Source: Naegleria gruberi
Taxonomy: Eukaryota
DNA length: 64,000 nt
Assembly: GCA_000004985.1 (NCBI GenBank)
Contig: GG738848.1
Reading direction: 5' to 3' (one strand)
Shown: positions 7,125 through 64,000 of the stretch, piece after piece
Layout: each line of letters starts with the position of its first letter
Numbering within the stretch: the stretch's first letter is position 1
Translations under genes and position numbers: made by a program
Notes under the pieces: generated by a model
The model's database searches: none
What the model saw: the letters and a program-made list of their open reading frames with translations, nothing else
Told to the model about the DNA's origin: nothing

Positions 7125-7672
7125 TTTTGTATATTATTTACAACAACAATATTAAATAATTTAAATAATTTAAATAAATTGATGATCATTATCATAATTC
7201 TCAAAATCGAGAGCAGTAAATATTAATTTGCTGTTGATGATCAGAAAAAGTCGCGTTAAGGAAAAACTGAGCAAACAAGTGTTGTTATTTTTTTTGATTT
7301 GTTTTTGTGGCCCTAAAAAGGAAAATTAGCTGGAATAGATCAACCCAAATATGGTACTTTCATTTTACTGTAAAAATCTGAGAAAAATATTCTTTAATTT
7401 CAAAATTGCATTGCTAAAAGTTGAATAGATGAAACTAAACTCTGATTCTGATAAAGTGCTAATATTATTAATTTTGGAAATTAGTAAGTTTTGAGATTTT
7501 CTTTTTAGAGCTCTTCCACCTGCAAGAATATATATCTGGCAGTGTGTACCAGGATCCTCTGTGGTTGTAATTTGTTTCTATTGTAATTTGCTCACGTTAT
7601 AGAGAATCACGTTTCGAAATCCCTTTAAATTTGTCACACTGGTAAATTAAACTTGCTTATTCGAAACAAAAA

Positions 7673-9016
7673 ATGCTTTCTTTCGCCTTTAGAGTTTTTA
7701 AACCTTTAATTTATAGTGTAGTTGGACTTTTTCAACCTTCTGATCCTGCTGTATCTTCCTCCTATGTGAGATTGGCCAATACTCTATTCGAATTACATTT
7801 TAATTATATTGAGAATAAGAAACCAATTTCCAATTTCTTTATAACTTGTGAGTTTGATGGTAAAACAGTGAGAAAGCAAGTATTACTAAAAGGTGATGGA
7901 AAACGTGATGGTGGTATCTATCATCATGCAGTTGAACTTCATCCACAAAAGTTAATGTCCATTAAGGTGGAAACCGAAAGTGGAAGGTTGTTATTCGAAG
8001 CTCTAGATATTAATACCAACAGTTTCAAACAAGAAACTCTAACATTAATGGAAATGTCTATTCCAGACAGAAAGCAAGAACTATTCGATTCTATTAAGGA
8101 CAAATTAATTTCCATTTCCAAAAATGTAATCATTGGATCCATGTCCATCACATTTAGTGGCAAATCATCCCTCCTCAACAATATCTTCAAAACACTTGGT
8201 TCCAAACATGTTCCATTCCCAGTAGGAAGCACAGAACAAGCAAGAGAAGCTTACAAACTATTTTATGGAAGTTATCCAAGTAATGATTATTTGTCGTCGT
8301 TCACCACTGAAATTCTCAAGAAAAATGTGGATGATGTTGAGGGAATGGAATCTCTTTGGATTTGGGATTTGCCTGGAATTTTCGAATTTACCACTGCCGG
8401 TCAAATGCCAACACTTTTGAGTTTGACAGATGACTTATTGAACAAGTTATTTGTTACAAAGAATGGAATGATGAAATTGAATGGTAACCAAGAGGATAAA
8501 AAAGTCAATCGAGAAGAAGAAGAATTCTCACTGAAACCTCAAGCTTTAATTGTAACTCTTCCATTGGAGAATAGTTTCGCCTATAATTCCACAAGTGATA
8601 ATAATATTGCGTTATATTTTGGAAGAATTTCTGGATTTCTATCAAAGGAGCATAATGTGAAATCTGTTTATTGTTATACCAAGATAGACGAAACTTATAT
8701 TTACCAGAATTACATTTCAAAGAATGTGGGAATTACTAGCATGTTGGACGAAACTGATCCTACACCAGATCAAATGAAACTCAATTTACTCAAACAATTC
8801 CATGAATGGGATATTTTAGAAAGAAAGGATAATAATTTTCCAGATATGGTTAACAGTGATCATACAATTCCTTTTTTATCAATCAATTCCCCAACTAAGG
8901 AAATTGACAACTTTTTCCAAGTTCAATATTTGGAAGTGTTAAATCTGGCATTGGATAAATGTTTCCAGAAGAAATCATCCCTCTCATGTGAATCCATTTG
9001 CATTGTTAAAAAATAA
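7673..9016 (+). CDS. Hypothetical protein with degenerate P-loop GTPase-like motifs.
   Basis: The 447-aa ORF contains IIGSMSITFSGKSSLLNNIF, which is dynamin/AIG1-like G1 with extra residues. It also contains WIWDLPGIFEF, a DxPG G3-like motif. No further domain was recognised. Confidence 0.35.
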   Translation: MLSFAFRVFKPLIYSVVGLFQPSDPAVSSSYVRLANTLFELHFNYIENKKPISNFFITCEFDGKTVRKQVLLKGDGKRDGGIYHHAVELHPQKLMSIKVETESGRLLFEALDINTNSFKQETLTLMEMSIPDRKQELFDSIKDKLISISKNVIIGSMSITFSGKSSLLNNIFKTLGSKHVPFPVGSTEQAREAYKLFYGSYPSNDYLSSFTTEILKKNVDDVEGMESLWIWDLPGIFEFTTAGQMPTLLSLTDDLLNKLFVTKNGMMKLNGNQEDKKVNREEEEFSLKPQALIVTLPLENSFAYNSTSDNNIALYFGRISGFLSKEHNVKSVYCYTKIDETYIYQNYISKNVGITSMLDETDPTPDQMKLNLLKQFHEWDILERKDNNFPDMVNSDHTIPFLSINSPTKEIDNFFQVQYLEVLNLALDKCFQKKSSLSCESICIVKK

Positions 9017-9144: not shown

Positions 9145-10008
9145 TTATTCCTTTACAGATTTAAGCAATTTTGATGCACTCGCCAAAATTTCAAAATGAT
9201 ACCCATTTCTCGAAATATATGGAGAGTGTACAATGCGTTTCATTTGTGCACCAACGAAAATGAAATCTTTTGGAGTCAAACTTTCAAGCGAATCTGGCGA
9301 TCTTCCTGATATAAAAATGAAACTCTTTACAATAATCTTTCGTGTAAATCTTGGTGATTTTTCAACGTGATTGAAAATCGTTTCGTCAAGTTTGTCCATG
9401 TGGGGAATATTTTCATAGAATAAATTGTCAATTCTTGGGGATTTGACAAGAGTTGGAGAATTAGGTGTGAATGAATTGTAATTTTCTTGAAATTTGTTTT
9501 CGAGAAGAGAATTGTTTTGATCTGGTTTTTTGGCAAAGTATTTGCATGTTACTAATGTTGGCTGGATCAAAAATAGAATGCTTATCATTATCATTTGAAA
9601 GATTGACAACAAGATGATTGAGATATACGAAAGTGAAACTGAAACCAAGACGGCAAGAGATGATTTTTGAGAGAATGTCAATTTCTGGGTAGTACAATAA
9701 CCCAAGGAAGTTAAAAATCTCAAATTGAACAAGAAAATTGAACCAGCATCTTCGTGATGAAGAATTGTCAATAAGAGTTCCCACCAATTTCTATACGATA
9801 CTCGACTATTGTCTGTAAAAAACAAAAGGAAGGGTAGAAAGTTTGCCAACAAGTAAATCCATCCATTTCTATCTTCCATAGCAAGCTCTTGGTGCATTCT
9901 GATTCTTTCGTAATTCATTTTTTTGTTATTCGAAACGTGATTTTCCTCCTTACCAATCTTAACATTCCTTGAAACGTGATTTTTCAACAATCCTAAACAG
10001 ACTGTCAT
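9145..10008 (-). CDS. Hypothetical multi-pass membrane protein.
   Basis: The 287-aa ORF has several hydrophobic helices (LLANFLPFLLFFT, ISIILLSIFQMIMISILFLIQ). No recognisable catalytic motif was seen. Confidence 0.3.
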   Translation of the reverse strand: MTVCLGLLKNHVSRNVKIGKEENHVSNNKKMNYERIRMHQELAMEDRNGWIYLLANFLPFLLFFTDNSRVSYRNWWELLLTILHHEDAGSIFLFNLRFLTSLGYCTTQKLTFSQKSSLAVLVSVSLSYISIILLSIFQMIMISILFLIQPTLVTCKYFAKKPDQNNSLLENKFQENYNSFTPNSPTLVKSPRIDNLFYENIPHMDKLDETIFNHVEKSPRFTRKIIVKSFIFISGRSPDSLESLTPKDFIFVGAQMKRIVHSPYISRNGYHFEILASASKLLKSVKE

Positions 10009-10040
10009 CAGAAAACGTGATTAAACTTTAAAAAAAAACG

Positions 10041-10742
10041 ATGGGTAGATTAGTATATCTTGCAGCTGCAGGATTAGTTGGATATTTGCTTGGAACGAGA
10101 CAAACTAATACTGACAGCCCAAGTTCACTTTCGAATAACTCGCCACAATCATTGATTGAGGTTTCTACAACAGACCCAGTTGTGGAATTTCAGCAATTGG
10201 CTGTGGTTTCTAATCCCAGTGATATTGAAGAAACATCATCTACAGCTTTGGAAGTTATTCTAAACGATTCGTCTCCCAAATCCCTCACATGGTATAATAC
10301 TGCACTCTATACTACAATTCTATTACTTTCATGTAAACTTGGAGTTTCGATTTATACCACACTGTTCACAACCTTCAGTATTCCAATGTCTTTGCAAGAA
10401 CAGATTCGTATTCCAATTCTAATAACTAAAAACTATTCCTCTGAATGCTACAATCACTCTCTCCTTCTCAATCTACTCAATAGCAAAATGAAAGATTCTC
10501 GCTTCACATTTGAATTTTGCTCAGCTCCCGAAAAACCTCATTTGAATTGTTGTTTCTATCTGGAAGATAGTAGAGATGTGAAAAGTCCATTCGACAAGTC
10601 AATTCTCTACATTGTGAATAGTAAAATAGCACAAGCAGTGAATAGACCTCACATGTTCGTGTGTGCTCATTCGACCAATATTTTGGAATTGAAGAATATT
10701 CAGAATTTGATGGAATATTTGGAGATTAATTTTGTGGTATAG
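10041..10742 (+). CDS. Hypothetical protein with an N-terminal signal/anchor and a Ser/Thr-rich region.
   Basis: The 233-aa ORF starts with the hydrophobic N-terminus MGRLVYLAAAGLVGYLLG. A low-complexity S/T segment follows. A second hydrophobic segment is TAL YTTILLLSCKLGVSIY. Confidence 0.3.
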   Translation: MGRLVYLAAAGLVGYLLGTRQTNTDSPSSLSNNSPQSLIEVSTTDPVVEFQQLAVVSNPSDIEETSSTALEVILNDSSPKSLTWYNTALYTTILLLSCKLGVSIYTTLFTTFSIPMSLQEQIRIPILITKNYSSECYNHSLLLNLLNSKMKDSRFTFEFCSAPEKPHLNCCFYLEDSRDVKSPFDKSILYIVNSKIAQAVNRPHMFVCAHSTNILELKNIQNLMEYLEINFVV

Positions 10743-14732: not shown

Positions 14733-15962
14733 TGAAAAACGTGTTTTTGTGTTTTTTAAAGGATAACCGAAGGTTACCGTTCAAGAGGTTCAAAGGTGAA
14801 TTTGAAAGTAGTAAGGAAGCATTTCTTGTTGATTTCAAGGGAATCTCATTGTAAACTAATGAGACTCAGATATTGTGGTTAATTTGAACCTCAATCTTGA
14901 AAATGAGAATTTCAAAATTGATTGCCATTGGAATGTTTAAATTTGATTGAATATTTAGAAGTGAATTATAATAATTCATGTTGAATGAATACTCCGTGAT
15001 CCTCAGGAGGTTAAATTTACTAATTCTCAGCAATTGATGAAGGTGTGATGGGTGCTTCTAATGTTGGACATGATGATGTTTCGAATCGGAATGGTTACAT
15101 GTTGTTATAATAATAATTCGTAATTCGTTTCTTGAGCAGAAGACTCCTTGTTGGGTTGTTTTATCCAATCATGATGTTGTTGTAGTGTGGATTTTTTTAT
15201 TAAAATTTAAAAAGCAATCAAATTTGGCGGTTTTCCAAAGTAACGGTTTTTTCAAATAAAAAATAAACAAGACACTTTATTAGAGACATGTTCATCGTCT
15301 TGTTGTTTGTCTAAAAGCAATACACTTGGATGTACACCGTGTAGACGTGCGGTTCATACATGATACTAAAAGCTATTGGAGAACATAATATGATTATAAT
15401 TTAATCAGGCTTTTTGTTAGTCTGGTACCATCATAATATTAAATTCAGCATCATAGCGGTTTAAGGATTCCTACTCTGCAGCCCTTCAATACAACATCTA
15501 ACAACTATGACTCAAAATATGTTATATTGTTGATTGATGAAGAATGGAACGATAGCTACCAGGAAATGTTATTAGAAGGTAGATGAAATTTATATGGCAG
15601 ATGATGCTCTTGTTGCTTCATCAGGCTTCGACACTTGGCAAACAGACTAAGAGTTCGCAATTACCTTTTAATCATACTCAATATCCAGTTTATCACAATA
15701 TAGGAAGAGCCCACTTTGCAATATCACATGTTTTATTATTACAATATCATTTTGATATTGTTGAATATTATATAATTCAATTTAATGGTTTTCCACAAAA
15801 GAAGTCATGGTTTCGTTCATTTGAAAGGGTTAGAATGGTTTATTACAATATAATACATGGTGGTGTATGCCATTTTGTGGCAATACTGAATTCGCGCTAA
15901 ATGTGTTCAGTTAGAGAGAAATGGTTTCGTCAGAAGTATTGAGAGAAGAAGAAACGGTTTGT

Positions 15963-16136
15963 TTAGAATACCATTCCAATAACAGCCAAGATAGCAATCA
16001 ATAACATGGCAGCAAATCCTTGTTCAGCAGCACCAGCATATACTTCAGATTCGTGATATTGAGCATTAATTGGTGAGGCAAAGAAGAACATGATACAAGC
16101 CAAGAGCATCATGACGAGGAAAGTTTGAGTGTTCAT
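15963..16136 (-). CDS. Small 57-aa predicted secreted/membrane peptide. It is not in the ORF track because it is under 60 aa.
   Basis: The peptide reads ATG...TAA as MNTQTFLVMMLLACIMFFFASPINAQYHESEVYAGAAEQGFAAMLLIAILAVIGMVF. It has an N-terminal signal-like hydrophobic stretch and a C-terminal hydrophobic helix. Confidence 0.25.
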   Translation of the reverse strand: MNTQTFLVMMLLACIMFFFASPINAQYHESEVYAGAAEQGFAAMLLIAILAVIGMVF

Positions 16137-16670
16137 TTTGAATAGTTTTGATTAGTTTTGTTTAGTTGTTTTGTTTTGTTATTGTTTCAGAATCTAACGG
16201 CACAGTTGTTAATTTATAGGACTTTTCGAATACATACTGAAATGGTCAAGTGGTTCCGTAAATGCTTCCATTACGAAATTTGTGTTCATCACTACAATTT
16301 AAGAAAACGGCTGCCGATATGAATTTTCTTCAAATGTAGTATTCAGATAACAACATCGGCAATAATACAACCATTCTCAAATTCATCCACTTCTCAAAAA
16401 GACGAAACTAATCTCTACATGAATTTGAGAGAATCAAATCATGCGATATCAAAACGAATATTACACTCACTTTCCTAACATTCTATTTTATTGGCATATT
16501 AGAAAAATTCAATATGGAATTGGAAACACAAGTTTACAATTCTAAACATCTCTTAATATATTGACCTGACTTGAAAAACTTTACAAATCTCTTTACAAAG
16601 TCTTTCGGTGTAAGGAGGAATTGTTGTGGCATTTTGATCGATATCCGTAAAATTAAATAATAAAATGGTT

Positions 16671-16743
16671 TGCTGACGGACGGGATCGAACCGGCGACCA
16701 ATGGCTTATTAGACCAACGCTCTACCGACTGAGCTACGCCAGC
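16671..16743 (-). tRNA. tRNA-Ile (anticodon AAU), 73 nt.
   Basis: The cloverleaf folds by hand. The acceptor stem is GCUGGCG/CGUCAGC with one G-U pair. The D arm is GCUC-AGUCGGUA-GAGC, the standard A box. The anticodon loop is CUAAUAA. The T arm is GCCGG-UUCGAUC-CCGUC, the B box, with one C-U mismatch. A U27-U43 mismatch is also present. A T-run (TTTT) follows the 3' end. The two non-Watson-Crick pairs lower confidence and it could be a slightly decayed copy. Confidence 0.6.
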
Positions 16744-16908
16744 TTACATTCATTACAAATAACCTATAGAATTATGTAATAAAACAAATAACAATTTGTG
16801 CGAGATCCAATTTATCCTAGCTGTTAGCAATTCATTATTAAAATTGTTTTAATACAGCAGATCTCGTCAATCATCACAAGTTGATAGTGTGGTTGTATTG
16901 TAATGTAA

Positions 16909-16989
16909 GTTGAGGTGGCCGAGTGGTTAAGGCGCCAGCCTGCTAAGTTGGTGGAGAAATCCGCGTGGGTTCGAATCCCATCCTCAACG
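16909..16989 (+). tRNA. tRNA-Ser (anticodon GCU), type II with a long variable arm, 81 nt.
   Basis: The acceptor stem is GUUGAGG/CCUCAAC with discriminator G. The D arm is GCC-GAGUGGUUAA-GGC. The anticodon stem is CCAGC/GUUGG with loop CUGCUAA. The variable arm is 13 nt (UGGAGAAAUCCGC). The T arm is GUGGG-UUCGAAU-CCCAU. TTTT lies just downstream. Confidence 0.8.
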
Positions 16990-17082
16990 ATTTTGCTTGT
17001 TGGGTAAAATAAATTTTTGAACTGCTTTACTTGTTATTTCCATTTTGATTTTCTTCTGAAGAAGCATGTACAATATATTTCA

Positions 17083-18288
17083 TTATTTATTGAAAGAAGT
17101 ATTGTCAAATGCAACTTTTGTGTCTTGAAACAAATCTTGAAGAAATGAATAATCGACATCATTGTCGACCACCTTTTCCACAACTGGGACTGGATTTGAA
17201 ACATTGATAAATATCAATTTCTTCAGTTTCTCATAGAATTCAGAAATAATATCAGCAAGAGGTTGGACAAGAACTTGGAAGACACCTGTCAGAATATTCC
17301 AAATAAATTTCCAAGTAAATGAAACTGTGGCTGCACCCACTTTGGTGGATTCAATTAAATATTTGACAAATGATTGCAAATATCCATTAAAATTATAGTT
17401 GAATGAATCCTTTTCCTTAAATAGTGAAATAATTTGAGTAATTGTGAAATAGGCCAATCCTGCTACAGCTGTGATAAACAAAGATTTGAGATCTAATTTG
17501 ATTTTCTTCATGGCCAAAGCAGGAACTAGAACTGAAGTAATGGCCAGCAATTTTTCATAGCTGAAAGTTTTTAAAAGGTAAACTTCTGAAACAAGTTCCC
17601 AAATCTTTCCTAAAAATTGAGAAATGGTTTCGTCTTGAAAATCAAATGGACTTGAAATTGGGACTACCTTATCTCCACTACATAGTAATGCCAATTGTTT
17701 GAAATTAATCAAATTCTTTGCCTTTTTGAAAAGAGTTTTCATATCTGAACGTTGGTCAACTGTGGCATACGGTTGACAGTTCAGTGTCAAGATAGAAATG
17801 TCCTTGTCAGGATACTGTTTCTTCATCTTGTAAGCAACTTCACAGGCAACGCTTCCTCCAGCTTTATAGCCAGTTACAATAATGTTGTAATTGGTTGTTT
17901 TAACTGAAGGCGCAAACTTTTCATAAATCATATTCGAAACTTGGCTAATAGTTTCCAAATCCTCCTTCTCTTCATTAAATGACTTGCAAACCAAAACGAT
18001 CAATTGCTTGCCATCAAATTGAATAAATTGTCCAAGAGAAATTCTATTCTCAAAGTTACACGAAACGGTCGAATCTGCAATGAGAGGTTTTACGTCTTGT
18101 TGCGAAACAACTTGTGCAAGCCATTTCTTTGTTGGAAAATTGTCAATGTCAATGACTTGCAATTCTTCGAATGGTTGGCTAGTCACGACAGGAATGAGAG
18201 ATTCTAATGAATGGACCGATTCTAATGGTGTTAGTGATTCTACTGATTCGACTGAGGATGTGAACCATCCTGTTAACCAACTTGACAT
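17083..18288 (-). CDS. Class 3 (fungal-type) lipase-like protein whose nucleophile-elbow Ser is replaced by Ala, a probable pseudo-lipase.
   Basis: The 401-aa ORF has IIVTGYKAGGSVA where a canonical lipase_3 would have GHSLGGA. That is H to Y and S to A in the G-x-S-x-G position. The C-terminal half consists of amphipathic/hydrophobic helices. It is a paralogue of the adjacent divergent gene at 18461..19591. Confidence 0.5.
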   Translation of the reverse strand: MSSWLTGWFTSSVESVESLTPLESVHSLESLIPVVTSQPFEELQVIDIDNFPTKKWLAQVVSQQDVKPLIADSTVSCNFENRISLGQFIQFDGKQLIVLVCKSFNEEKEDLETISQVSNMIYEKFAPSVKTTNYNIIVTGYKAGGSVACEVAYKMKKQYPDKDISILTLNCQPYATVDQRSDMKTLFKKAKNLINFKQLALLCSGDKVVPISSPFDFQDETISQFLGKIWELVSEVYLLKTFSYEKLLAITSVLVPALAMKKIKLDLKSLFITAVAGLAYFTITQIISLFKEKDSFNYNFNGYLQSFVKYLIESTKVGAATVSFTWKFIWNILTGVFQVLVQPLADIISEFYEKLKKLIFINVSNPVPVVEKVVDNDVDYSFLQDLFQDTKVAFDNTSFNK

Positions 18289-18460
18289 TTTTTTGAAGAT
18301 TTGAAGCTTGACAGTTGCATTAGAGAATGATTAGTTGTGCTTCACGATCACGTTTTGATTAATAACCCAAAAAATCTTAAACGTGATAATCATTTTGTTC
18401 AAAGTGTCAAATATCAATCACGTTTTACATTTTAAATAATTAATTCGAAAAAAAATAGAA

Positions 18461-19591
18461 ATGACACTCACCAACATTGATATTGAAAATAAAGAGATTT
18501 TAAAGTGGCTATGCAAAAGAACAAACTCAATCTATAGCTCAACTTTGTTGCCAGAATTGTCAGAACTTCCGTTGAAATCTGGCAGCTTGATATTTCATGA
18601 TAACAATAATTCAGTATTGGCAGTAGCAGATATATATGATTCAATAGGATCAGTAGTGGTTACTTGTAAAGGAAGTCAATCAATCTATGACTGGGTGTCA
18701 AATTTCACTGAATTTCCAACAACTTCTAATCAAAATTCTATTCCTGATTTCATTTACGAGAATGCATTGAAAATTTCACAGAAATTTGATAGAGAATCGC
18801 CAAATATTTTCAATAATAAGAAGGTGATTTGTTGTGGGCATAGTAGAGGTGCAGGAATTGCTTCTTATTTGGGCTATCATATTGCTTCAAATTCCAAGAA
18901 CTGTCAAGTGTCTGTTTTGACATTTAGCTCAATTCCATATGCCAATGATCAATTTAAAACTGCTTTCGACAATGTAATTTACAAAGCTAAGAATATCATT
19001 TCAATTCTAGATCCACTTCAAACTTTATGGGTTTCTAGAAATATCCCAGGAGAAACTAGAATATTGGAATTCACCTATCCAGGTGCATCAGCAATTGCAC
19101 TCTTTACCATTCCACTAACAGCATTCGTTAAGGAGATTCATTGTCTGTTTGACAAAATTTTCCATTTGCAAGGAATTTCTGAAATATTGGAATGTGCAAC
19201 ATCTTTTGCCTTATTTAAAGGTACAAGTCAATTCTTGTCCTTTTCTGGACTGGTGACCATGTTTCTTATGGATGTTGGAGTTAATGTATTCCAAGGAAAG
19301 TGTCACAAGATGGATTATACACAGCATGTAGTTGGAGGTGGCGTTGAACCTCTTATTAAGGCAGTTTTTGAGTTGCTGTCTGATGTCAACAACAAGACAA
19401 CCAACCTGGTGAATTTGATAACTAAGTTTGTGATGGGACCATTATTTGGATTGTTGAAGAAACTTTTCGTGAATGTTGTTGATCTGATCGATCAATTATG
19501 GAACGCCCTAAAGGAATTTGTGGGACAAGCTGTTAATTTCTTTAAATCTAGTTTATCTTTGATTTCCTATCATCCAATAGTGCAAAATTAA
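18461..19591 (+). CDS. Class 3 lipase-like protein with an intact GHSxG nucleophile elbow.
   Basis: The 376-aa ORF contains VICCGHSRGAGIASYLGY, the GHS-x-G motif. Its overall layout matches 17083..18288, including a C-terminal amphipathic helix region. It is divergently transcribed from that paralogue with about 170 bp between the two starts. Confidence 0.5.
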   Translation: MTLTNIDIENKEILKWLCKRTNSIYSSTLLPELSELPLKSGSLIFHDNNNSVLAVADIYDSIGSVVVTCKGSQSIYDWVSNFTEFPTTSNQNSIPDFIYENALKISQKFDRESPNIFNNKKVICCGHSRGAGIASYLGYHIASNSKNCQVSVLTFSSIPYANDQFKTAFDNVIYKAKNIISILDPLQTLWVSRNIPGETRILEFTYPGASAIALFTIPLTAFVKEIHCLFDKIFHLQGISEILECATSFALFKGTSQFLSFSGLVTMFLMDVGVNVFQGKCHKMDYTQHVVGGGVEPLIKAVFELLSDVNNKTTNLVNLITKFVMGPLFGLLKKLFVNVVDLIDQLWNALKEFVGQAVNFFKSSLSLISYHPIVQN

Positions 19592-19617: not shown

Positions 19618-20862
19618 TTATAATGAAAAATGATAGAATTCTCTCGTAAAACTCAAAGGACGGCTATTATATAATTTACACAAAGATTTCAATTCAAATT
19701 TGTAAAAACCTGTATCAATAATTCCTCCATAGCTATCTCTTGAATATGCTCCATGATACCTATGAAATTCAGCAATATTTTGCACAATCAATCCATAACC
19801 TCCTCCTTGATAAGGGCATTCCAATATTTTTGGTTTAAACTTGGAATAAATAATATCAAAGGGATGGACTCTTGAACTCTTCATATGAACCCCTCCAGAA
19901 GAAGTTGTCATTCCATAGAAGAAACATCCAATTAATACTCGGTAGATTCCAACATCTTTGCAATCTTGAAAAGTGTTCGAATTATTCTTGCTGTAAATAC
20001 GACTTTTGAGAAATCCAGGAGTGTAGTATTGGTAAATTTGGTCAATTGTGGTCAAGTTTCTTGTATAGCAATTTATGTAAGTCACATCCAGCATGAAACA
20101 TGTCTCAGTTCCGTCGAGTTTTCCCATTAAAAAATAATGTACCAAGTTGGTTGTAGAACTTGCTGTGTCAAAAGTTTTGAGTTTGATGTAAACTTGTTTC
20201 TTTTCTTGATCCACATCAAGAATGTCAACCAATCTTGAAAGTATTTCATTTTCTAACATTAAATTGACATTCTTGCAATCTGAAATATTCAAATATTTGA
20301 CAATCTCCAAAATGGAATCAAATTTCAAATCAAATTCAATGTGCATAACATTTGTATTCTTCCGTTCAGCACCAATGATTGAATAGAAAGTCTCTTTCTT
20401 CATTCGTTCATTCCCCATATTAAAATTGTTCTTGACTTCGTCTAACGAATTGCAATCATTCTTTTCCAAATCAAAACTCTTTGTATGATCAAAACCACAT
20501 TTGAATCGAATAATTATCTTTGATCTCTTAATATTTACAACATGATCATGACCATTTGGCATGACTTTTCCCTCCTGTATAGATTGCTCCATCAAACCCT
20601 CATGATCATTCGATCCATCACTCACCACTGGAGCATAATTTCTACTATTCATAAATTGCTCCAAAAGTTGTTGATCTAAATTTTCTCTCTTCTTCCGATC
20701 ATGAAAAGTAATCCTTGTCTTGACAATAATTCCGAAACTCTGCAAAATTTCAATCAGGGATGATTTATCAGCATTCTTCTTGTTATTATTATTTGTATTC
20801 TTTTCCCTCCTCTTGTGATGATCAGAAGCTGATGAACCTCTCTTTACATCATGTTGAGACAT
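19618..20862 (-). CDS. Hypothetical protein with a basic, Asn-rich N-terminus.
   Basis: The 414-aa ORF is uninterrupted. It contains a KLDG tetrapeptide (FLMGKLDGTE) reminiscent of the nucleotidyltransferase KxDG motif, but no supporting downstream motifs were found. Confidence 0.35.
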   Translation of the reverse strand: MSQHDVKRGSSASDHHKRREKNTNNNNKKNADKSSLIEILQSFGIIVKTRITFHDRKKRENLDQQLLEQFMNSRNYAPVVSDGSNDHEGLMEQSIQEGKVMPNGHDHVVNIKRSKIIIRFKCGFDHTKSFDLEKNDCNSLDEVKNNFNMGNERMKKETFYSIIGAERKNTNVMHIEFDLKFDSILEIVKYLNISDCKNVNLMLENEILSRLVDILDVDQEKKQVYIKLKTFDTASSTTNLVHYFLMGKLDGTETCFMLDVTYINCYTRNLTTIDQIYQYYTPGFLKSRIYSKNNSNTFQDCKDVGIYRVLIGCFFYGMTTSSGGVHMKSSRVHPFDIIYSKFKPKILECPYQGGGYGLIVQNIAEFHRYHGAYSRDSYGGIIDTGFYKFELKSLCKLYNSRPLSFTREFYHFSL

Positions 20863-20932: not shown

Positions 20933-21670
20933 TTATTCACTTTCATTAATTGGCTTGATCTCATCATCTTCTAATTCTTGATTTCCATTCTTATTCTTCT
21001 TCATCTTGTTGATCACTCTACGGACAAGTCCCAATACTTTCAATGCGATGAAACTCATCACAATGAAACCACCATTAAGCATCATGACAATAAAAACCTT
21101 CCTTGGAATGTAAGTGACATTTGGTGGAACCATTGTTAAATCATTGAAATTATTAAGGAAACAATAATATTTCGTAAGGGGTTGCATACTTGCCAATACT
21201 TCATTGGCCAATGAAAAACTTGTGGTAACAACGCCTGAATAGAGAACTCCATCACTCGGAGTGTTGACCATTGATACTAGCCAAGCTGGTGAATAACAAG
21301 ATCCTCCAATAGAGCACGTCTCTGCACTCTTTGGAATCGTACGCCTATCAGATTCTTCTCTCGAATAGACCGGTGTAATAATTGTCTCTGAATTTTGATA
21401 ATACAATGATTTCAGATGAATTGGAGTAACAAAATTGAATTCTCTCTTTGCAATCTCACAATCATAAGCAGTACATCTGTGCTCATTCAATGAGGATAAA
21501 ATCATCTCACACGAACGAATGGTTTCCGTATTTTCCAATCCATATTGTCGGAAAAACTCTGTCAATATATAAGTAAATACCACAATGGAAACAATTAGAG
21601 TCATTAAGAGAATGAACCGAATAGGATCCTTCCTTGCCAATTCCTTAATCTGCTCCAATTTATCTAACAT
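20933..21670 (-). CDS. Hypothetical two-TM membrane protein.
   Basis: The 245-aa ORF has hydrophobic helices near the N-terminus (RFILLMTLIVSIVVFTYILTEFF) and near the C-terminus (VFIVMMLNGGFIVMSFIALKVLGLV). The tail is acidic. Confidence 0.35.
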   Translation of the reverse strand: MLDKLEQIKELARKDPIRFILLMTLIVSIVVFTYILTEFFRQYGLENTETIRSCEMILSSLNEHRCTAYDCEIAKREFNFVTPIHLKSLYYQNSETIITPVYSREESDRRTIPKSAETCSIGGSCYSPAWLVSMVNTPSDGVLYSGVVTTSFSLANEVLASMQPLTKYYCFLNNFNDLTMVPPNVTYIPRKVFIVMMLNGGFIVMSFIALKVLGLVRRVINKMKKNKNGNQELEDDEIKPINESE

Positions 21671-27817: not shown

Positions 27818-30800
27818 TCAAAGTCTTATTTTATCTTCGTTTTCTTCAGTTTCTTGTTGTTCTATAGCTTGTTGGTCATCAACTGGTGGATATGTTTCTT
27901 CCTTTCTATCCATGAAGAATGCCCTAGTACTGCCCATCAGGTTCAAACTATTACGAAGAGATGCATTGTGCATATTTTCAGCTCTCATTCTGGTAGATCT
28001 AAATGATGCGAACTTGGAGTTTGATTCTGGTTGACTTGTGGCTGATTGTACTTGTGTTAGTTGTTGTAAATGTTTGAAAACTTCAACTTCTACTGGATTT
28101 TCATGATCTACATTATGAATTACAGACCCTCCAAAACTGACATGAGCATTAGAATCTGCACCTTCCTCTTGATGAGGGAAAATTTCAAGTGGATCAACGT
28201 GATGTTTCTTCTTGAGTAAGTAGGTCTGGCAAAGTCCTTTTCCTTTCACATCAATTTTCCGTTCCTCAAATTCCATTCCCAAATCGTGAACTCTTTCATA
28301 GGTAGTTCTAGAAATTTGGATACGACCTGGTTCTCCTGTTGATTCCATTCTTGAGGCAGTATTGATGGTATCTCCCCACAAGTCGTAGGCAAACTTTTTG
28401 ATTCCAATCACACCAGCAACAACTGGTCCTGTATGTAGGCCGACACGAATGTTTACATTGGTATTCTCGCTGCAATTGTATTCCTTGATTACCTGAAGTG
28501 TATCAATGGCGAATCTCAATGACCTTTCAGGGTGATCTGATTGAGCATTCAAATCAATACCTCCAACACAAAAGTAAGCATCTCCAATGGTTTTAATCTT
28601 TTCCAAATTATACTTTTCAGTGAGCAAATCAAATCCATTCACAATAGCATTCAACATTAATACAAGTTCAGATGGATTCATTCCAGAACTAATTCTTGTA
28701 AACCCAACCATGTCAGAGAAGAATACAGTTACATCATTGAATTTTTCAGCAATGAATGTCTCTCCTCCCTTCAATTTGGAAGCAACACTCTCTGGCATGA
28801 TATTCAACAATAACTGTTCAGATTTCTTCTTCTCTTCAGCTAGTAACATGTTTTGCTTCTTCTCAGGTGTGAAATCCTTGATGAAACAACTAATAACTGG
28901 CTTCTTGTTGAAAATACTAACAAACAAATTGACTTTGGAAGGGAATTTGGTTCCATTCTTTCTGTAGCATTCCAATTCAAGAGTTTCACCAAAAGGTTGT
29001 GTTGCATTGACCATTTGTTGAATAATGGTTTCCAAACGTTGTCTATTATTATCGGAAGGATCGAATAGCTTGGTGAGCTTTTCTCCTAAAACATCACTAT
29101 TAGTCATGCCAAACATCTTTTGAGCAACTGGATTGAAAAGTTCAATGTCACCTTGTGAGTTACACAAAATGGCTCCATCAACTGCTGCATTCAAAATGGC
29201 TCTCACCTTACCGTCTCCACCACTACCTTCTTCTTCGTTGGTTTGTTTCTTTGATATTCTTAATTTGCTTGGAAGATTATTGAAAAGAGCAAATTGTTTC
29301 AACTCTTCATTGGATTCCATAGCCTCAATTGGAAGGTAGTTGAGTAAACTTCTTAATTGGTTGGATTGATCCCAAATATTTTGAATTAAACCATATGTCA
29401 AATATCCTAAAATTGCTAAAATAATAAATCCAAAAACAGAAAATAGGATGGTAATGATGAGATTTGGAACTGACATTGATGATGAATAGAAAGTAAACAA
29501 GTTCAAGAATTTTTGCAACAAAATATTGCACTTGTCATCTGTAGTAAGCATTGTCTTGTAAAGGTCAATCAACTTGTAATTACTAAAGTAAACATCCTCT
29601 GAAAATGTATTACTAGCCGTAGAGAAATCAACAATTAAATCATTAATACTACTACAAGAGTAATAGGTGGTATTAGTACAGTTGGTACTTTCAAGAATAG
29701 CCGTAACTTCAGTGCTTGATGACGTAAATGAAGATTCATATTGTAAATTATTCCAATAACTTGCAAGTGATCCCGTCAGTGCCTTATTCTCATCATGGAA
29801 AGAGTCAATTTCTGAAGATGTTATCAGCCTGGGGTCATTGATACTGGAAATGTCTGCATATCTCTTGGCAATAAAAATCTCCGAAAGTCTAAATGTTATA
29901 GAGACAGAGGTGGTCATAATTTTAACACCACTTTCAATATTCTCGAGTGCAAGTATTGCTTTTTGGGAGTCTAATTGAAAATCCAAGAAAAGCATAGACA
30001 TGCAGCATACTGTCAAGAAAATAGTCGCAACAATCAAGAAGGAAACTGAAAATTGAGGTCTTTCAAATAATGTAGGATCTTTCACATCAATATCTTCACC
30101 ACTCTTTGATTCCAAGTGGTGATAGATTTTTCCAATATAGTCCTTTGTGATTGATCTTGACATGAACTTGATTGTTGACTTAATTTGTCTCAATTTAAAC
30201 GTAGAGAATGCCACAAAAACAATTGCAATAATACCATAAACAGATATCGAAATAGCATAAAAGTAAATAAACTGCTCTTGCAACATTGTGTACTGTTCCT
30301 TATTTCTTTGTAAAAATAATTCACACATGTTTGAAAAACTAGCGGTTTGAACTTTTCTATTCTTCCAGAAAAACATAAAGTTAGAAGCAGTTGTTGTGTT
30401 TGAATATGATGTCATGTCCATTGCCAAATATTCATTGGTGTTTTTGATTATAATATCATTGATTTCTGAAAGGGAGGCATTTCTCTTTTGATTGAAAGAG
30501 TCTGCACTTGTAAAGTTGTTATCATAGTAAACAACTGGTAAATAAAGATCATGAGTAGAACTGGTAAAATCAGATAGCATTCCTTTTGTGAATTTTGATG
30601 CTGATTTCTTGAGAGATTGAAGAACTGTTACATATGTTCTAACTCTTGCCTTGTGTGCTGCAAAATAGCTTGTTGTACTGTTGGATCCATTGACCATAGT
30701 TGCAGCAATATCGTTACTGTACAATGGAAACATCTTGTTAAAGTTTTGAATCATTCTAATCTCTTTTAACATGTATCTTGGGAAGAATTGTGGAATGCAA

Positions 30801-33067
30801 ACATAATGTGCAACTGCCACATTATTATCAATTTGAATAGAGAAACTCACACCGAGACCAATTGCAACAGTCAAAATACTCAATGAAAAGCAAAAGATAA
30901 AGCCAAAGAAGTACATCAAAATGTTTGATCCCTTTGTTCTATTGAGGGCGGATCTTATTTGCAACTCCTTCTTGATAATTGATGAACGATTTTCTACTCC
31001 ATCAAACTCAGACGACTCTGAAACAGACTTTTCATCAAAGTTGAACTTGTTATTTTTCGATTCAACATTTGGCATGTATGGCAGGACCTTATTTCCTTTG
31101 ACAACTGGTTTCTTGTGGGAAACTTTACGAGTTTCCTCATCCTCAATAGTTGCTGCCTCGTCATACATTTCATTGGCTCTTTCTTTGTCAAATTTAATTT
31201 CTTCCAAAAACTTGGCATATGTTCTTAAAACATTCTTATTGTTACCATAATTTGACATTAAATTGGTTAGCACAAGGGTACATTGTTTTGTGAGTGATGT
31301 GATTTGACTGTTCAATGAGTCAATCTTGTCTACGGATACTGATTCACTCATCATTTCCTTCCAAAATGATTTGTGTAAAGAGCTGATAATAGCATGCTTC
31401 TTTTCAATTTTCTGAATGATATGTTTGACTTCTAATAGCTTTTTACCATCTTCTAGAGATATCTCCAACTCTTTTGTTCTGAGACTGATGGAAAATCTTT
31501 GAATCAGATTTGGTAAGTTTTTAGTGGCCTTCTCCAAAAGTTTCAATCCAGCACTTTGTTGACCTTCAATAAAGTTTCCTGTAATCACAGCAGCAATTAC
31601 TAAAAGGTCAATATTCTGATAAGTTTTCTGACTAGCAACTCCTTTGATAAAGCATTTGGCCATTTCAATTTCTGTCAAATTACCAATTGATAAACCTTCC
31701 TTTGCAGTCTTGACACAAAATTTCAAGAAGAGAAACAATCTTCTAGTCTTTTTTGTTTCCTCAATTTCATGTAAAATGTTGAGCGCTTGTCTCTCAAGAA
31801 TATACTTGGGATTAATAAAATCCAAATTGTCACTCTTAATTAGAGAATCAAGACCCTTCTCCAAGTGATCGAGAAATACTGCCTTGATATCTTTCATAAT
31901 CATTCGAGTGTACATCTCTAATGAAATACTTCCAACTGCAAAGAAGACAATCATTACAAAGAAGGTTATTCCCATCAATCCTAAACCAAGTCCAAACTCA
32001 TTCTCTTTGTTTACATAGACAGATACCACTCCACACAAGGAAGAACCAACTGCAGCACACATAAAACCAAAGTAAACTGAATTCTCCCATCTTGTATAGA
32101 ATGGAATAAAGTACAGAAAAGATGCAGCAAGAATAAATCTTGTTAGAAAGTAATAAACTGCTTGAATGACAATGTAATCGTCTGAAACCAAGCATGTAAA
32201 AATGTAAAAACTTGTTGAAGCAAGAAAGTTGAAGAATAAAAAGTGCAAATCGTACGAAGCAAATGGTGTCTTACTTTTAGCATGTACATCCATCAATGTG
32301 TGGGTTCCAACAAATAATGAAAGTGGCACTGCAAACACTGACATAATTCCAAGAACCATCATGGCAATATTACCACTTCCGTAACAATATACATCTGGGT
32401 ATCTCTGTAAAACTTGATGTGGTGTCAAAGCTGGTGCAACAATCACCGATGATGCATAGTTACAATCGAGGAAACCCAACAAGAGCCAACTAATTGGCAT
32501 AGATAGTAGACACGTTGTTGCAATAATTATCTGCGTGGCAATCTTTATCTTTGGCCAATATTTGCTCATTGTATAGACTGACCTATAGGCCAATGCCAAA
32601 GTAATAACCGAAACAATAAGAAACGCAAAGAAAACCGAAGCAATAATTAAGGCTGGTATATATGGAACATTTTCCAATCCAAATGTCATTGGATAATTGA
32701 GTGCTCTAGCTATCCATTTACCATATTCTCCATAGTTATAGTCTGGTTGTATTCCAATGAATAGTCCTATCCAAATAATGTACAAGTGCACGCACAACAT
32801 GACGATTTTGTCTTTCCTTGAGATACATTCTGTCGAGTCGTGCAAACTCATCAACAAAGTTATCAGAGATTCTTCAACTTTTGCCATGAAGGTCATATTA
32901 TTAAATTCAGTGTCCAAATCAGTTACTGAAACAACAGATTCAGAGCCAGAACCTGCAAACTTTGGTGGGCCTGCATTACTCCCCACCGAAAATCTTCTTG
33001 CACGTGTATCATATTGAGAGGGATTGCCCATACTGATGGCATCGTCTGTAATGTTGAGATTATTCAT
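27818..33067 (-). CDS. Polytopic class III nucleotide cyclase with 6 TM, a cytoplasmic region, 6 TM, a PAS/PAC domain and a cyclase homology domain. Adenylyl-type by the Lys in KIKTIGD.
   Basis: The 1749-aa ORF is uninterrupted. Two clusters of about 6 hydrophobic helices are present. The PAS/PAC segment is [38 protein letters not shown]...[21 protein letters not shown]. The cyclase domain is [16 protein letters not shown]...[15 protein letters not shown]...[36 protein letters not shown]. Confidence 0.8.
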   Translation of the reverse strand: [1749 protein letters not shown]

Positions 33068-38010: not shown

Positions 38011-40134
38011 TTATGTCACATTAAAGATATGAACTTTTTTCTTGGAATAATCAGCAACGTAAAGCTCATTATTCACTTCATTCATACACATTCCATAAGG
38101 TCCTTGTAAATGTTCACTTTTGAAACTATGTAAATATCCGCCACTTTCGTCAAATAATTCGATTCTCTTATTGGACGAATCACAAATCAATAATTGTCTA
38201 GAAACCTTATCATACAACAGTCCTCTCACAAAATTGAATTCCCCAATTGAGCTACCACTCTTTCCAAATGAATATTTCAACTCGGCTTGATAATTATTCT
38301 TGAAATTGACTCCAGTTGCAAGTGGAGATTCTGGTGTGATGGAAAGTTTAAAGATTTGAATCTTATTCGAACCTGTTTCACTCACTATTAAATCACCATT
38401 CAGTGTCATGTCTATTCCCCATGGAGAGCTAAAGTTTATACCACAAGTTGATTGATCGAGTCTGTGAATTGGTTGACCAGTTTGTGAATTCAACAAGTGA
38501 ATGCAATTATTATTGTAATCACATACAAATAGCAGTTTGGAATTTTTACAAAATGTCATTCCACTTGGATAGGAAATTATTCCACTTGATTGTTTCCATT
38601 CGTAAAATTGAGATTGTTTGTCAATGATTGAAATTTTCAATAATTGTTCCAAATTGAACTTGTAAACTGAACGATCGTTGGATCCAATGAAGATGCTCGT
38701 TCTAGATGATGCAGAGGAAGGACTCTTTGGAGAGGAAACTGCATCACCTCTTATATCTTCCTCAATAATATACAAACAATGAGGTCTGAAGAAGGTCTTG
38801 ATGGATCCTTTAAATTTCTTTGTTTTCAAATCGTAAACCATTATTCTACTATTGAAATAGTCGCTCACTAAGAGAACATTTAAGAGGTGAGAGATTTTGA
38901 CATCGTATGGATTGGAGAGATTGTTCTTTTCATTTTCTTGTTGTTCCAGAGAGTGAGAATAAGCGATTGTTCGAGGAATGACTCTTCTCTTCATGATATT
39001 CGAAACAGAAGAGAAATGCTCCAACTCTGTTCGAATTTCCTCGACAATTTCACTCAAATCCATGAGTTGATTCTCATATAAATCTGAAATGTCAGTAAAC
39101 TGAAACAACAACTTGATTTTCTCAAATTCTTGAAGCGTTTTGTAATATTTTCGGTGTTTCCTTTCCAATAATTCATATCCTGACATGTCTGATAAACTAG
39201 CAAACTCCAAATACAACAATTTCACATCCTTCTTCAATGTTGCAATTTCTCTGACTATCATTTCGTATTCCAAACATTTCTTCTCAATGCTTTCGTTCAA
39301 TTTCTCTTGTTTCTCCCTCACTACTCTTTGTACATTCTCATAAAATTCATTCGATTGCTGTTTCATCCTCAATTTCATTTTAGAAATCTTGTTTAAATAG
39401 AATTGACATTGATCATTCGTCTTGTTTGGTTCCAAACCATGCATACTCTCCCATTCATTCACACTATTTTCCAATTCACTCAATTCTTGTGTCATTTTCA
39501 ATTTTTCTTCAGCTTCTATATTCTCAATTAGGAAAATATCATGTCCCTTATGCGAATCAACAGAACAAGCAGCACAAATTAATGATTGGCAAGTTTTGCA
39601 GACAGTATTGATAGCTACTGAGTGGAGAATACATTTGGGAGGTTTCTTTCGGGCAGAAAGTGGTGAGGGTTGATGCTGAGAGGGCGAAATTGTATTTAAA
39701 CTCAAGGGAGAAACTAAACTATTCTGAACCGAATCATGAGGAAAGATGTGATGATGTGAGCACTTCTTTAAATGTGTTTTTGTATGGAATTTACATAGAT
39801 ACAAATCACATTCCTTGCAAAAACAAGTTGATTCTTGATATTCTTCTGCTTTCTTCCAACATTTCGAACAAGGTTGAATTTTATAATAAACTCCATTCGA
39901 AACTAAAGATGACGGTGATGATTTAGGAGTTTTAGGTGAGGATTCGGTACTGCCAACAAGAGAAGATGAGGTCGTGTTGCTACTAGCACCACTTGAGGAA
40001 CGAGAATGAATCATGAACTTTTTTTTTATGAAGTTTTTATTAGAGTTGATTGTTGACATGTGTGTTGCATTTGGAAACAAGAAGAGAATGAGGAAACTTT
40101 CTTTCTTGAAACCATGTATGATTCGATTTTTCAA
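38011..40134 (-). CDS. TRIM-like protein with two B-box zinc fingers, a coiled coil and NHL repeats. No RING finger.
   Basis: B-box-like zinc fingers are CSKCWKKAEEYQESTCFCKECDLYLCKFHTKTH and CILHSVAINTVCKTCQSLICAACSVDSHKGHD. A heptad-rich region of about 200 aa follows. At least five NHL-type repeats are present (LLVSDYFNSRIMVYDL, LLFVCDYNNNCIHLLN, DLIVSETGSNKIQIFKL, QLLICDSSNKRIELFD, ELYVADYSKKKVHIFNV). The likely start is an internal ATG (MSTINS or MIHSRSS). Confidence 0.65.
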   Translation of the reverse strand: MKNRIIHGFKKESFLILFLFPNATHMSTINSNKNFIKKKFMIHSRSSSGASSNTTSSSLVGSTESSPKTPKSSPSSLVSNGVYYKIQPCSKCWKKAEEYQESTCFCKECDLYLCKFHTKTHLKKCSHHHIFPHDSVQNSLVSPLSLNTISPSQHQPSPLSARKKPPKCILHSVAINTVCKTCQSLICAACSVDSHKGHDIFLIENIEAEEKLKMTQELSELENSVNEWESMHGLEPNKTNDQCQFYLNKISKMKLRMKQQSNEFYENVQRVVREKQEKLNESIEKKCLEYEMIVREIATLKKDVKLLYLEFASLSDMSGYELLERKHRKYYKTLQEFEKIKLLFQFTDISDLYENQLMDLSEIVEEIRTELEHFSSVSNIMKRRVIPRTIAYSHSLEQQENEKNNLSNPYDVKISHLLNVLLVSDYFNSRIMVYDLKTKKFKGSIKTFFRPHCLYIIEEDIRGDAVSSPKSPSSASSRTSIFIGSNDRSVYKFNLEQLLKISIIDKQSQFYEWKQSSGIISYPSGMTFCKNSKLLFVCDYNNNCIHLLNSQTGQPIHRLDQSTCGINFSSPWGIDMTLNGDLIVSETGSNKIQIFKLSITPESPLATGVNFKNNYQAELKYSFGKSGSSIGEFNFVRGLLYDKVSRQLLICDSSNKRIELFDESGGYLHSFKSEHLQGPYGMCMNEVNNELYVADYSKKKVHIFNVT

Positions 40135-40302: not shown

Positions 40303-41809
40303 TTAATATTTTTCATGTAATTCTTGGAAGTGTGTTTCGGTTTTCTTCCTATTCAAGAAAACTAGTAAAATACACACCACAATACACAATGCAATCAAAG
40401 ATAGAATAAATAATACACCAACAGCAATAATTGGCTTCAATGTAAATAAATAATCAACTGGAGCAGTACTGAATTGAAAGTTTCCACCTTTTGAGAATAC
40501 TACATAGTATTGAGTTGCTTCTCCTGAAAAGAGATAGAGATTAGTTGAATTTACATGATAGTCATAATTGAAAAATTGATTTCTTTCAATATTCCAAGTG
40601 ATTGGTTTCTTTCCAATATAAACATCTTGAATTGTTGCTGTATTTTCAATTCTGATTTCAAAATATGTTTGAGGTTGAGTGGTGAAAGTTGCTGTGAATG
40701 GTGCGGAATTATCACTTTGAATTGAGTATGTTTGTCCAATTTCAAGTTTAGTATAATTAAAACTAATCTTTTTAGCATAAAACAAATTATATACAGCACT
40801 GGGTGGAGAAATTGTGAATGAATAATCTGGATTTCTATTGGAGATGACTTGTTGTGTAAGATTTGATTGAACAATGGCTACCATTTCTTGATTTGAATTT
40901 GAGAATTGCCACACTGATTGAACTGGATCATTAGATTTCAACTCTTGAGCTATCAATGAAATGCAACCATAATTTTGATAGAAATGATCTTCTTTCACAC
41001 TTTCAATTGAATTCCATTCATTTACCAAACAATTCCCAATATAAAATAAAACATTTCGTTGCTGAATAGGATTCAGTTTCAACACCAAATTAGGTTGTCC
41101 ATAAACGNNNNNNNNNNNNNNNNNNNNNNNNNNNNNNNNNNNNNNNNNNNNNNNNNNCTGATTTCATTCTGGGAATGTTAAATTTGCAAAATCCACATTA
41201 ATTTCCATAACTTTTCCCCATTCAACTGGTTTTGTTTCTCCATATGGACAAGCAAGTTTAGATTTTCCAGAAAATCCATAATTGATAACACCACCTTCTT
41301 TTGATTCACCAGTGAATGTGAGAGTTGGTCTTTCAGCAGCAGTGAAATCACATGTTAAAGAAATAGACAATGCTCTTGTAACTCCATCAGTAGCAGGAAT
41401 ACCAGCATGGAAGACCTTTACACCAGCACTTTCATCTGCAGGATTGAGCAATGAAAGTTTAGGAGTACCTTTCTTACCGATAGGATAGCAGAGATTGTAT
41501 TGTTTAGCATATAGATATCCTTGAGCGTCAACAGTACAAACAGCATTGCTTGGATTGGTAACTCCTCCACAAATATTGCTAAAATTCCAACTAATTAGTT
41601 TCCGATAATAATAAACAAAATACATACAAATAAAAGTTGAAATTAGCATCGGTTGCTGCAACTTTATATCCTGAACCAGGAATATCAATATTAGAAAGGT
41701 CGATAATTCCTCTATAAGCAATTGGTAATGAACAAGTCGGTGCGGAGAATACAACATGCACACAACAAGCAAGCAGCAATGTGAGCAACACAAAGGTCAA
41801 TCGTAACAT
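40303..41809 (-). CDS. Surface protein paralogue A with a signal peptide, an extracellular domain and a single C-terminal TM with a short cytoplasmic tail. It has two exons and is interrupted by a 50-N assembly gap.
   Basis: Exon 1 is 41809..41628 (MLRLTFVLLTLLLACCVHVVFSAPTCS...) and ends at a GTATGT donor. A 49-nt intron spans 41579..41627. Exon 2 runs from 41578 to 40303. It is about 90% identical to gene B over the ectodomain. The C-terminus is IIAVGVLFILSLIALCIVVCILLVFLNRKKTETHFQELHEKY. A 1-nt deletion relative to gene B creates a stop just before the gap at 41108..41157. Confidence 0.45.
41108..41157. other. Assembly gap of 50 N inside tandem paralogue A.
   Basis: A run of exactly 50 N. 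The flanks align to adjacent positions of paralogue B, so little or no real sequence may be missing. Confidence 0.9.
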
Positions 41810-62600: not shown

Positions 62601-62885
62601 NNNNNNNNNNNNNNNNNNNNNNNNNNNNNNNNNNNNNNNNNNNNNNNNNNNNNNNNNNNNNNNNNNNNNNNNNNNNNNNNNNNNNNNNNNNNNNNNNNNN
62701 NNNNNNNNNNNNNNNNNNNNNNNNNNNNNNNNNNNNNNNNNNNNNNNNNNNNNNNNNNNNNNNNNNNNNNNNNNNNNNNNNNNNNNNNNNNNNNNNNNNN
62801 NNNNNNNNNNNNNNNNNNNNNNNNNNNNNNNNNNNNNNNNNNNNNNNNNNNNNNNNNNNNNNNNNNNNNNNNNNNNNNNNNNNNN
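59677..62885. other. Assembly gap of 3209 N.
   Basis: A run of N. The 1198-aa minus-strand ORF at 59622..63218 is an artefact of translating N as X. Confidence 0.95.
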
Positions 62886-63627: not shown

Positions 63628-64000
63628 GGGGTTGGGTTTGGGTTTGGGTTTGGGTTTGGGTTTGGGTTTGGGTTTGGGTTTGGGTTTGGGTTTGGGTTTG
63701 GGTTTGGGTTTGGGTTTGGGTTTGGGTTTGGGTTTGGGTTTGGGTTTGGGTTTGGGTTTGGGTTTGGGTTTGGGTTTGGGTTTGGGTTTGGGTTTGGGTT
63801 TGGGTTTGGGTTTGGGTTTGGGTTTGGGTTTGGGTTTGGGTTTGGGTTTGGGTTTGGGTTTGGGTTTGGGTTTGGGTTTGGGTTTGGGTTTGGGTTTGGG
63901 TTTGGGTTTGGGTTTGGGTTTGGGTTTGGGTTTGGGTTTGGGTTTGGGTTTGGGTTTGGGTTTGGGTTTGGGTTTGGGTTTGGGTTTGGGTTTGGGTTTA
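63624..64000 (+). repeat. Telomere-like hexamer repeat (TTTGGG)n, about 62 copies, G-rich strand 5' to 3' toward the window end.
   Basis: A perfect tandem GGGTTT array runs from about 63628 to the end of the window. It is preceded by a short degenerate GTTGGGGGTTGGG start. Orientation and position fit a right-arm chromosome terminus. Confidence 0.85.

Follow-up and report, generated by a model that had tools for sequence, protein, structure and literature searches.

A stretch of 64,000 nucleotides from Naegleria gruberi (contig GG738848.1, assembly GCA_000004985.1), called the window below, carries a head-to-head pair of genes whose products resemble class-3 lipases (genes A and B, Table 1). 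Judging from its conserved sequence motifs, the plus-strand gene B most likely encodes a functional lipid esterase or lipase. The product of the minus-strand gene A cannot be a serine hydrolase, because every position of the catalytic triad is altered. We consider, with a probability of about 0.6, that B is an active lipase and that A is its non-catalytic, co-expressed partner or competitor. What we infer in this reading is that B is enzymatically active, that membranes or lipids are bound, that the two genes are co-expressed and that A and B interact.

The earlier note on this DNA had described a divergent class-3-lipase-like pair at 17083-19591, with about 170 bp between the paralogues. The pair was recovered with exactly these coordinates and motifs, and the facing start codons are separated by 172 bp (18289-18460). 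Both open reading frames (ORFs) far exceed chance length, since a stop-free frame of 401 codons has P=7e-14 in DNA of 34% G+C (stop probability 0.073 per codon), and their GC content by codon position falls inside the range of four long neighbouring ORFs. In BLASTP, the two proteins shared 21% identity over 252 amino acids (aa) (E=3e-7), from just before the nucleophile elbow to near the C-terminus, with GYKAGG of A standing opposite GHSRGAG of B. Profiles were also compared with hhalign. The A-type profile (A plus a partial environmental relative, L002) and the B-type profile (B plus its orthologue from Willaertia magna) matched with a probability of 96% (E=2.8e-9) over A residues 117-360. 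By these alignments A and B are distant paralogues. No third copy was found within the window by tblastn.

Protein B is a member of the Pfam family Lipase_3 (PF01764), with a score of 47.4 bits (E=2.3e-12) against a gathering cut-off of 22 bits; the match covers positions 1-131 of the 140 of the model. The B-type profile also aligned with a generic Lipase_3 profile, built from four unrelated matches, at a probability of 99.1% (E=9e-19). The G-H-S-x-G elbow that had been reported for the plus-strand copy is present exactly as G126-H-S128-R-G130, in the context KVICCGHSRGAGIAS (CCGHSRGAG). In the AlphaFold2 model of B it lies on a strand-turn-helix (strand 121-127, helix 129-144), a block with a predicted local distance difference test score (pLDDT) of 73-84. 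The Asp D184 (SILDPLQ) falls in the Asp column of other Lipase_3 proteins. Past D184, the sole His kept between B and the Willaertia orthologue is H282 (GKCHKMDY versus GKAHSMVY), and its motif has the H-x3-Y form that the remaining Lipase_3 sequences of the multiple alignment show around their His. S128, D184 and H282 would form the putative triad of B, and all three are present in its only full-length relative. D184 and H282 are located in a region of the model (residues 181-299) with pLDDT below 50.

For the minus-strand copy, the earlier note had read G-Y-K-A-G-G at the same place and concluded that both the His and the nucleophilic Ser were replaced. This also proved exact: in G140-Y-K-A-G-G145, found in the context NIIVTGYKAGGSVACE (TGYKAGGS), the His is substituted by Y141 and the Ser by K142. 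The segment is homologous to the nucleophile elbow, as it aligns with GHSRGA of B and with GHSxGG of unrelated class-3 lipases, and it forms a strand-turn-helix in the model of A, with the elbow at the junction of strand 135-141 and helix 143-158. The loss in A is wider than had been claimed. In the alignments K197 occupies the Asp position, and a gap of four residues is found in the His loop at K293/D294, where B has C-H282-K-M. The partial relative L002 has Asn at the first of these sites and the same gap at the second. Moreover, A contains a single His, H26, so that no Ser-Asp-His triad was found in this protein. According to the alignments, the triad is lost in A only and is retained in B and its orthologue.

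In A, the Asp column is assigned with less certainty than the Ser column. A conserved Asp, D206 (GDKVVP / EDKIVP), lies 9 residues past K197 and resembles a DxVP motif. It was considered as the true homologue of the catalytic Asp and judged improbable, because the near-gapless alignment between A and B places K197 there instead; without Ser and His, it would restore no activity.

When the class assignment was checked with the Pfam model, it stood for B and fell short for A, which scored 17 bits (E=0.0058, residues 128-169 only), below the cut-off. The A-type profile matched the generic Lipase_3 profile at a probability of 93.8% (E=1.7e-7), with TGYKAGG placed on TGHSxGG. Homology of A to Lipase_3 despite its low score is thus supported by the profile-profile comparison and by its paralogy with B.

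The AlphaFold2 models, built from 8-sequence alignments, had a mean pLDDT of 51 for B and 47 for A, and of about 56-87 in the core blocks. The only part of A modelled with fair confidence was residues 83-188. This part displays the predicted alpha/beta core of class-3 lipases, with strands at 86-91, 96-101, 135-141 and 164-169 and helices at 111-131, 143-158 and 177-186. When both models were compared to the PDB with Foldseek, fungal class-3 lipases and feruloyl esterase A came out on top, in line with an alpha/beta-hydrolase fold in the two modelled cores. The findings that the earlier note had named as refutations, a GYKAGG segment not homologous to the elbow or the lack of this fold in both proteins, were thus both contradicted, and its reading of an enzyme and pseudo-enzyme pair is supported; the role that it suggested for A, a regulatory or lipid-binding partner, is putative. 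Sequence searches of the PDB returned nothing significant. The best match of A was FSP1 (E=0.4), a resemblance taken as chance. The best match of B involved residues 276-290 (19286-19330; QGKCHKMDYTQHVVGGG), which weakly resemble the microtubule-binding repeats of tau (QSKCGSKDNIKHVPGGG; E=0.046); this likeness around H282 was set aside as most likely fortuitous.

The N-terminus of A (residues 1-33; 18190-18288) is of low complexity and consists of reiterated S-V/L-E-S units (SVESVESLTPLESVHSLESL); part of their coding sequence is a 9-nt tandem repeat, with the tandem unit located at 18235-18255. Over the first ~80 residues of A the confidence of the model is very low, and B contains no corresponding region.

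Beyond the core, both proteins bear a helical, amphipathic and moderately hydrophobic module. Several segments show a high hydrophobic moment, such as residues 342-359 of A (0.62, the highest value) and residues 332-349 of B (0.57), and each protein has two moderately hydrophobic stretches (Kyte-Doolittle 19-residue mean of 1.5-1.7). The long C-terminal amphipathic-helix region announced by the earlier note is thus found in both proteins, where it is homologous, but the module of B is not a simple tail. Since the putative catalytic His H282 sits inside it, this module is partly an insertion in the hydrolase fold. The distance from D184 to H282 is about 98 residues, mostly predicted helices, and we infer that about 65 helical residues of B are inserted between the last core strands and H282. 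The composition of the module is compatible with binding to a membrane or to a lipid-droplet surface, or with a helical bundle. No Pfam family was found for the C-terminal halves of A and B, even at E up to 10, and the same was true of the EP domain.

An exhaustive profile search, which covered 1.84 billion representative proteins, returned 7 matches at E<1e-3. Two of the 7 were true family members; the other five were Lipase_3 proteins of a generic kind, found in metagenomes and in a nematode. The only full-length relative comes from the heterolobosean amoeba Willaertia magna and is listed as a hypothetical protein (KAL9644854.1, P0001); it shares 32% identity with B across 319 residues. It carries CCGHSRGGG and the same helical module, and the counterpart of D184 lies in SIYDPIA. 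An A-type gene was sought at the Willaertia B-type locus and was not found, the neighbours being RRM, NHL-like and actin-like proteins. The second relative (P0002) is a 125-aa fragment located on the 2.9-kb Logan contig SRR29240419_14550 (L002). This contig encodes A-type residues 162-388 and is the sole A-type relative found. It matches A with 68% identity in residues 163-262 and with 36% in residues 268-388, and its nucleotide identity to the window reaches 70% over 468 nt; no synteny with the window was found beyond the A-type fragment. The reading frame of L002 is frameshifted in an A4T4 run (320-352), and this copy may be a truncated pseudogene. L002 begins with (AAACCC)4 (positions 1-27), the hexamer of the telomere of the window, fused straight to the frame at A residue 162. 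This fusion may be an artefact of the assembly, or a telomere may have been added to a broken gene and healed it.

Outside the window, the helical module was thus detected, within the representative set, only in the Willaertia protein and in this environmental fragment. The other searches were even poorer. Word-indexed protein searches with A, B and a four-sequence alignment were empty and missed even the Willaertia protein; two metagenome contig scans and one viral scan yielded no relatives, and neither NCBIfam nor the phage DNA search gave any match. An exact look-up in the gene collection from public assemblies returned neither A nor B. From these near-empty profile, metagenome and viral searches, the subfamily is very narrowly distributed.

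In a codon alignment of A with L002, the ratio of nonsynonymous to synonymous substitution rates (dN/dS) was 0.17-0.19 for residues 162-262 and 0.4-0.5 for residues 268-388; these values are rough, because dS is about 1, near saturation, and a single pair was compared. In the first segment, identity was 0.78, 0.83 and 0.53 at codon positions 1, 2 and 3, respectively. Together with the intact ORF, these values argue for purifying selection on A and against a relic in decay.

The region between the two start codons is presumed to act as a bidirectional promoter. Its three ATCACGTTT copies, the middle one inverted, are located 43, 82 and 113 bp upstream of the B ATG. The motif TCACGTTT ((A)TCACGTTT) occurs 10 times in the window, compared to 1.9 expected. 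The copies of a second triple cluster (9933-10020) precede the ATG of ORF 10041-10742 by 28, 69 and 108 bp; in both clusters the copies are spaced by about 30-40 bp, and none is farther than about 115 bp from the plus-strand ATG that follows. A single copy (7607-7614) is present 66 bp upstream of ORF 7673-9016. From its recurrence, the motif looks like a candidate shared cis-regulatory element. No ATCACGTTT-type motif was found upstream of the Willaertia gene. A scan for sigma-70 promoters and terminators gave nothing above background, and is irrelevant for a eukaryote.

Taken together, these features suggest the following scenario. A and B would descend from a lineage-restricted class-3 (fungal-type) lipase gene that underwent an old inverted duplication in a protist, which was probably a heterolobosean amoeba. 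In B, the helical module would hold the enzyme on a membrane or lipid surface and could provide a lid-like element around the His loop. Protein A has retained the lipase-like core and the helical module, but not the residues needed for ester hydrolysis by a serine-hydrolase mechanism. Co-expressed with B from the shared upstream region, it might pair with B through the common helical module, or compete with it for the same lipid surface, and in this way tune the localisation or the activity of B.

Several points weigh against this scenario. Both AlphaFold2 models are poor overall, as they were derived from shallow alignments, and the fold matches are supporting and not independent, because the input alignments already held Lipase_3 sequences. 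The Willaertia locus lacks an A-type neighbour, so that a B-type protein can function in the absence of an A-type one. L002, the single A-type relative, is telomere-truncated and frameshifted, and the elbow is outside its coverage. Finally, the dN/dS estimates come from one saturated comparison with a partner that is possibly itself a pseudogene.

The most serious rival explanation, clearly less probable than an A that acts on B, is that A was neofunctionalised and now acts on its own, binding lipids or membranes or serving as a scaffold, with no remaining link to B, their adjacency being a mere footprint of the duplication. The duplication must be old, given the A-B identity of only 21%, and the missing A-type neighbour in Willaertia fits this explanation too. 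In addition, the best-conserved part of A relative to L002 (residues 162-262; 68% identity, dN/dS of about 0.18) does not include the former active site, and nothing in B corresponds to it closely. However, the head-to-head arrangement over 172 bp and the shared repeated motif favour co-regulation, and the helical modules of A and B are still recognisably homologous. Next in our ranking, and unlikely, comes the possibility that both proteins are non-catalytic lipase-like adaptors comparable to plant EDS1/PAD4, the triad of B serving for ligand binding. In the structural comparisons, lipase-like domains of the EDS1 group do appear, but fungal lipases score equal to or above EDS1 and no EP domain could be matched. 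Furthermore, the triad of B has been kept in the Willaertia protein at only 32% identity, for which catalysis is the simplest explanation.

That A is a pseudogene in early decay, without function, seems very improbable. All its catalytic residues are gone, its N-terminus is of low complexity and its sole relative is truncated and frameshifted; yet its frame remains open over 401 codons (P=7e-14 at a stop probability of 7.3% per codon), dN/dS is well under 1, and divergence is far greater at third codon positions than at the first two. We judge least probable of all that A performs a new chemistry at the old site, such as a Lys142-centred reaction or ligand capture. The two Lys at former triad positions, K142 and K197, would be in favour of such a role, but K197 is replaced by Asn in L002 and is thus not conserved. 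To our knowledge, no alpha/beta hydrolase uses a Lys as elbow nucleophile.

Table 1. Positions of the features of the A/B gene pair in the window.
Feature	Position	Strand	Basis or remark
Gene A, catalytically dead class-3-lipase-like paralogue	17083..18288	-	401 aa
Gene B, probable active class-3 lipase	18461..19591	+	376 aa
Divergent intergenic region, presumed bidirectional promoter	18289..18460	.	172 bp, three ATCACGTTT copies
ATCACGTTT copy	18347-18356	+	motif scan
ATCACGTTT copy	18379-18387	inverted	motif scan
ATCACGTTT copy	18417-18426	+	motif scan
Pfam Lipase_3 match, B residues 66-185	18656..19015	+	model positions 1-131 of 140
Intact nucleophile elbow of B, G126-H-S128-R-G130	18836..18850	+	motif and Lipase_3 alignment
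Putative catalytic Asp D184 of B (SILDPLQ)	19010..19012	+	Asp column of other Lipase_3 proteins
Putative catalytic His H282 of B (GKCHKMDY)	19304..19306	+	Willaertia conservation, H-x3-Y motif
Helical amphipathic, moderately hydrophobic module of B, residues 219-365	19115..19555	+	common to A
Predicted lipase-like alpha/beta core of A, residues 83-188	17725..18042	-	AlphaFold2, block pLDDT 56-87
Degenerate elbow of A, G140-Y-K-A-G-G145	17854..17871	-	aligned to GHSRGA of B and GHSxGG of Lipase_3
K197 of A, Asp position (D184 of B)	17698..17700	-	alignments; Asn in partial relative L002
K293/D294 of A, site of the 4-residue deletion of the His loop	17407..17412	-	alignments
Helical amphipathic, moderately hydrophobic module of A, residues 220-359	17212..17631	-	homologous to B module

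The window itself is gene-dense, with about 34% G+C, long uninterrupted ORFs and a eukaryotic domain content. Its proteins include a full-length two-half ABC transporter, a WH2-motif protein, and F-box/WD and LRR proteins. The genes at 27818-33067 (-), 51700-53394 (+) and 38011-40134 (-) code for a 1749-aa TPR-PAS-adenylate/guanylate cyclase, a dCache-cyclase and a B-box+NHL protein. This gene content is typical of free-living protists with rich signalling. Of the ORFs nearby, many match no Pfam family, among them 19618-20862 and 20933-21670, which adjoin B. Genes for tRNA-Ile(AAT) and tRNA-Ser(GCT) are located just downstream of gene A, at 16671-16743 (-) and 16909-16989 (+), inside a 2.3-kb stretch (14767-17082) without a long ORF.

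At its end (63628-64000), the window bears about 62 tandem GGGTTT units, a telomere-like array; nothing useful was found in the literature on a TTTGGG telomere repeat, or on the SRA run behind L002. The terminal gene is apparently capped by this telomere without a stop codon, since a plus-strand frame from 62889, after an N gap, is open right into the GGGTTT repeat. The assembly gaps (N runs) are at 41108-41157 and 59677-62885, and an apparent 1198-aa ORF at 59622-63218 (-) was discarded as an artefact of translation through the second one.

Catalytically dead paralogues of alpha/beta hydrolases are common and of a well-known kind. The novelty here is modest: a narrow subfamily with a helical insertion that bears the putative catalytic His, and a tidy divergent pair. 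The pair is a clean natural one, in which one copy has all three triad residues and the other none, with a shared upstream region of 172 bp. The subfamily is almost absent from public data, with one full-length relative among 1.84 billion representatives. If A does regulate B, the pair would offer a compact model for the origin and retention of lipase pseudo-enzymes in free-living amoebae; if it does not, A would be one more lineage-specific pseudo-enzyme.

Among known systems, the PF01764 lipases (those of Rhizopus, Rhizomucor miehei and Thermomyces, and feruloyl esterase A of Aspergillus) resemble B in the elbow, in the Asp after the next-but-one strand and in the downstream His, and both modelled cores superpose best on these structures. 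B differs from them in that its Asp-His stretch of about 98 residues is a mostly helical, partly hydrophobic insertion that leads into a helical C-terminus of about 90 residues, whereas A lacks the whole triad and stays under the family cut-off. A functional analogy is offered by ABHD5/CGI-58, an alpha/beta-hydrolase pseudo-enzyme with a replaced nucleophilic Ser, which is a non-catalytic co-activator of the lipase ATGL on lipid droplets. Like A in the reading that we favour, it is a Ser-less regulator, of hydrolase fold, of a true lipase at a lipid surface. It belongs, however, to another alpha/beta-hydrolase subfamily and is neither a paralogue nor a gene neighbour of its lipase.

The closest analogy of the A/B pair is the plant EDS1/PAD4/SAG101 system. 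These proteins combine a class-3 lipase-like domain with an all-helical C-terminal domain and form paralogue heterodimers, and SAG101 lacks the S-D-H triad that EDS1 and PAD4 retain (bioRxiv 10.1101/2021.12.15.472806). As mentioned above, their lipase-like domains were among the structural matches of the A and B models. In contrast, the helical part of A and B is much shorter, carries the putative catalytic His in B and contains no detectable EP domain, so that the pair is not a member of the EDS1 family and the likeness is one of analogy only. The organism and presumably the biology are also different. By this analogy, A and B could even form an obligate heteromer through their previously undescribed helical module, an independent, EDS1/SAG101-like lipid-sensing or lipid-signalling switch of the amoeba lineage and not a simple digestive lipase, a prospect that we regard as rather improbable.

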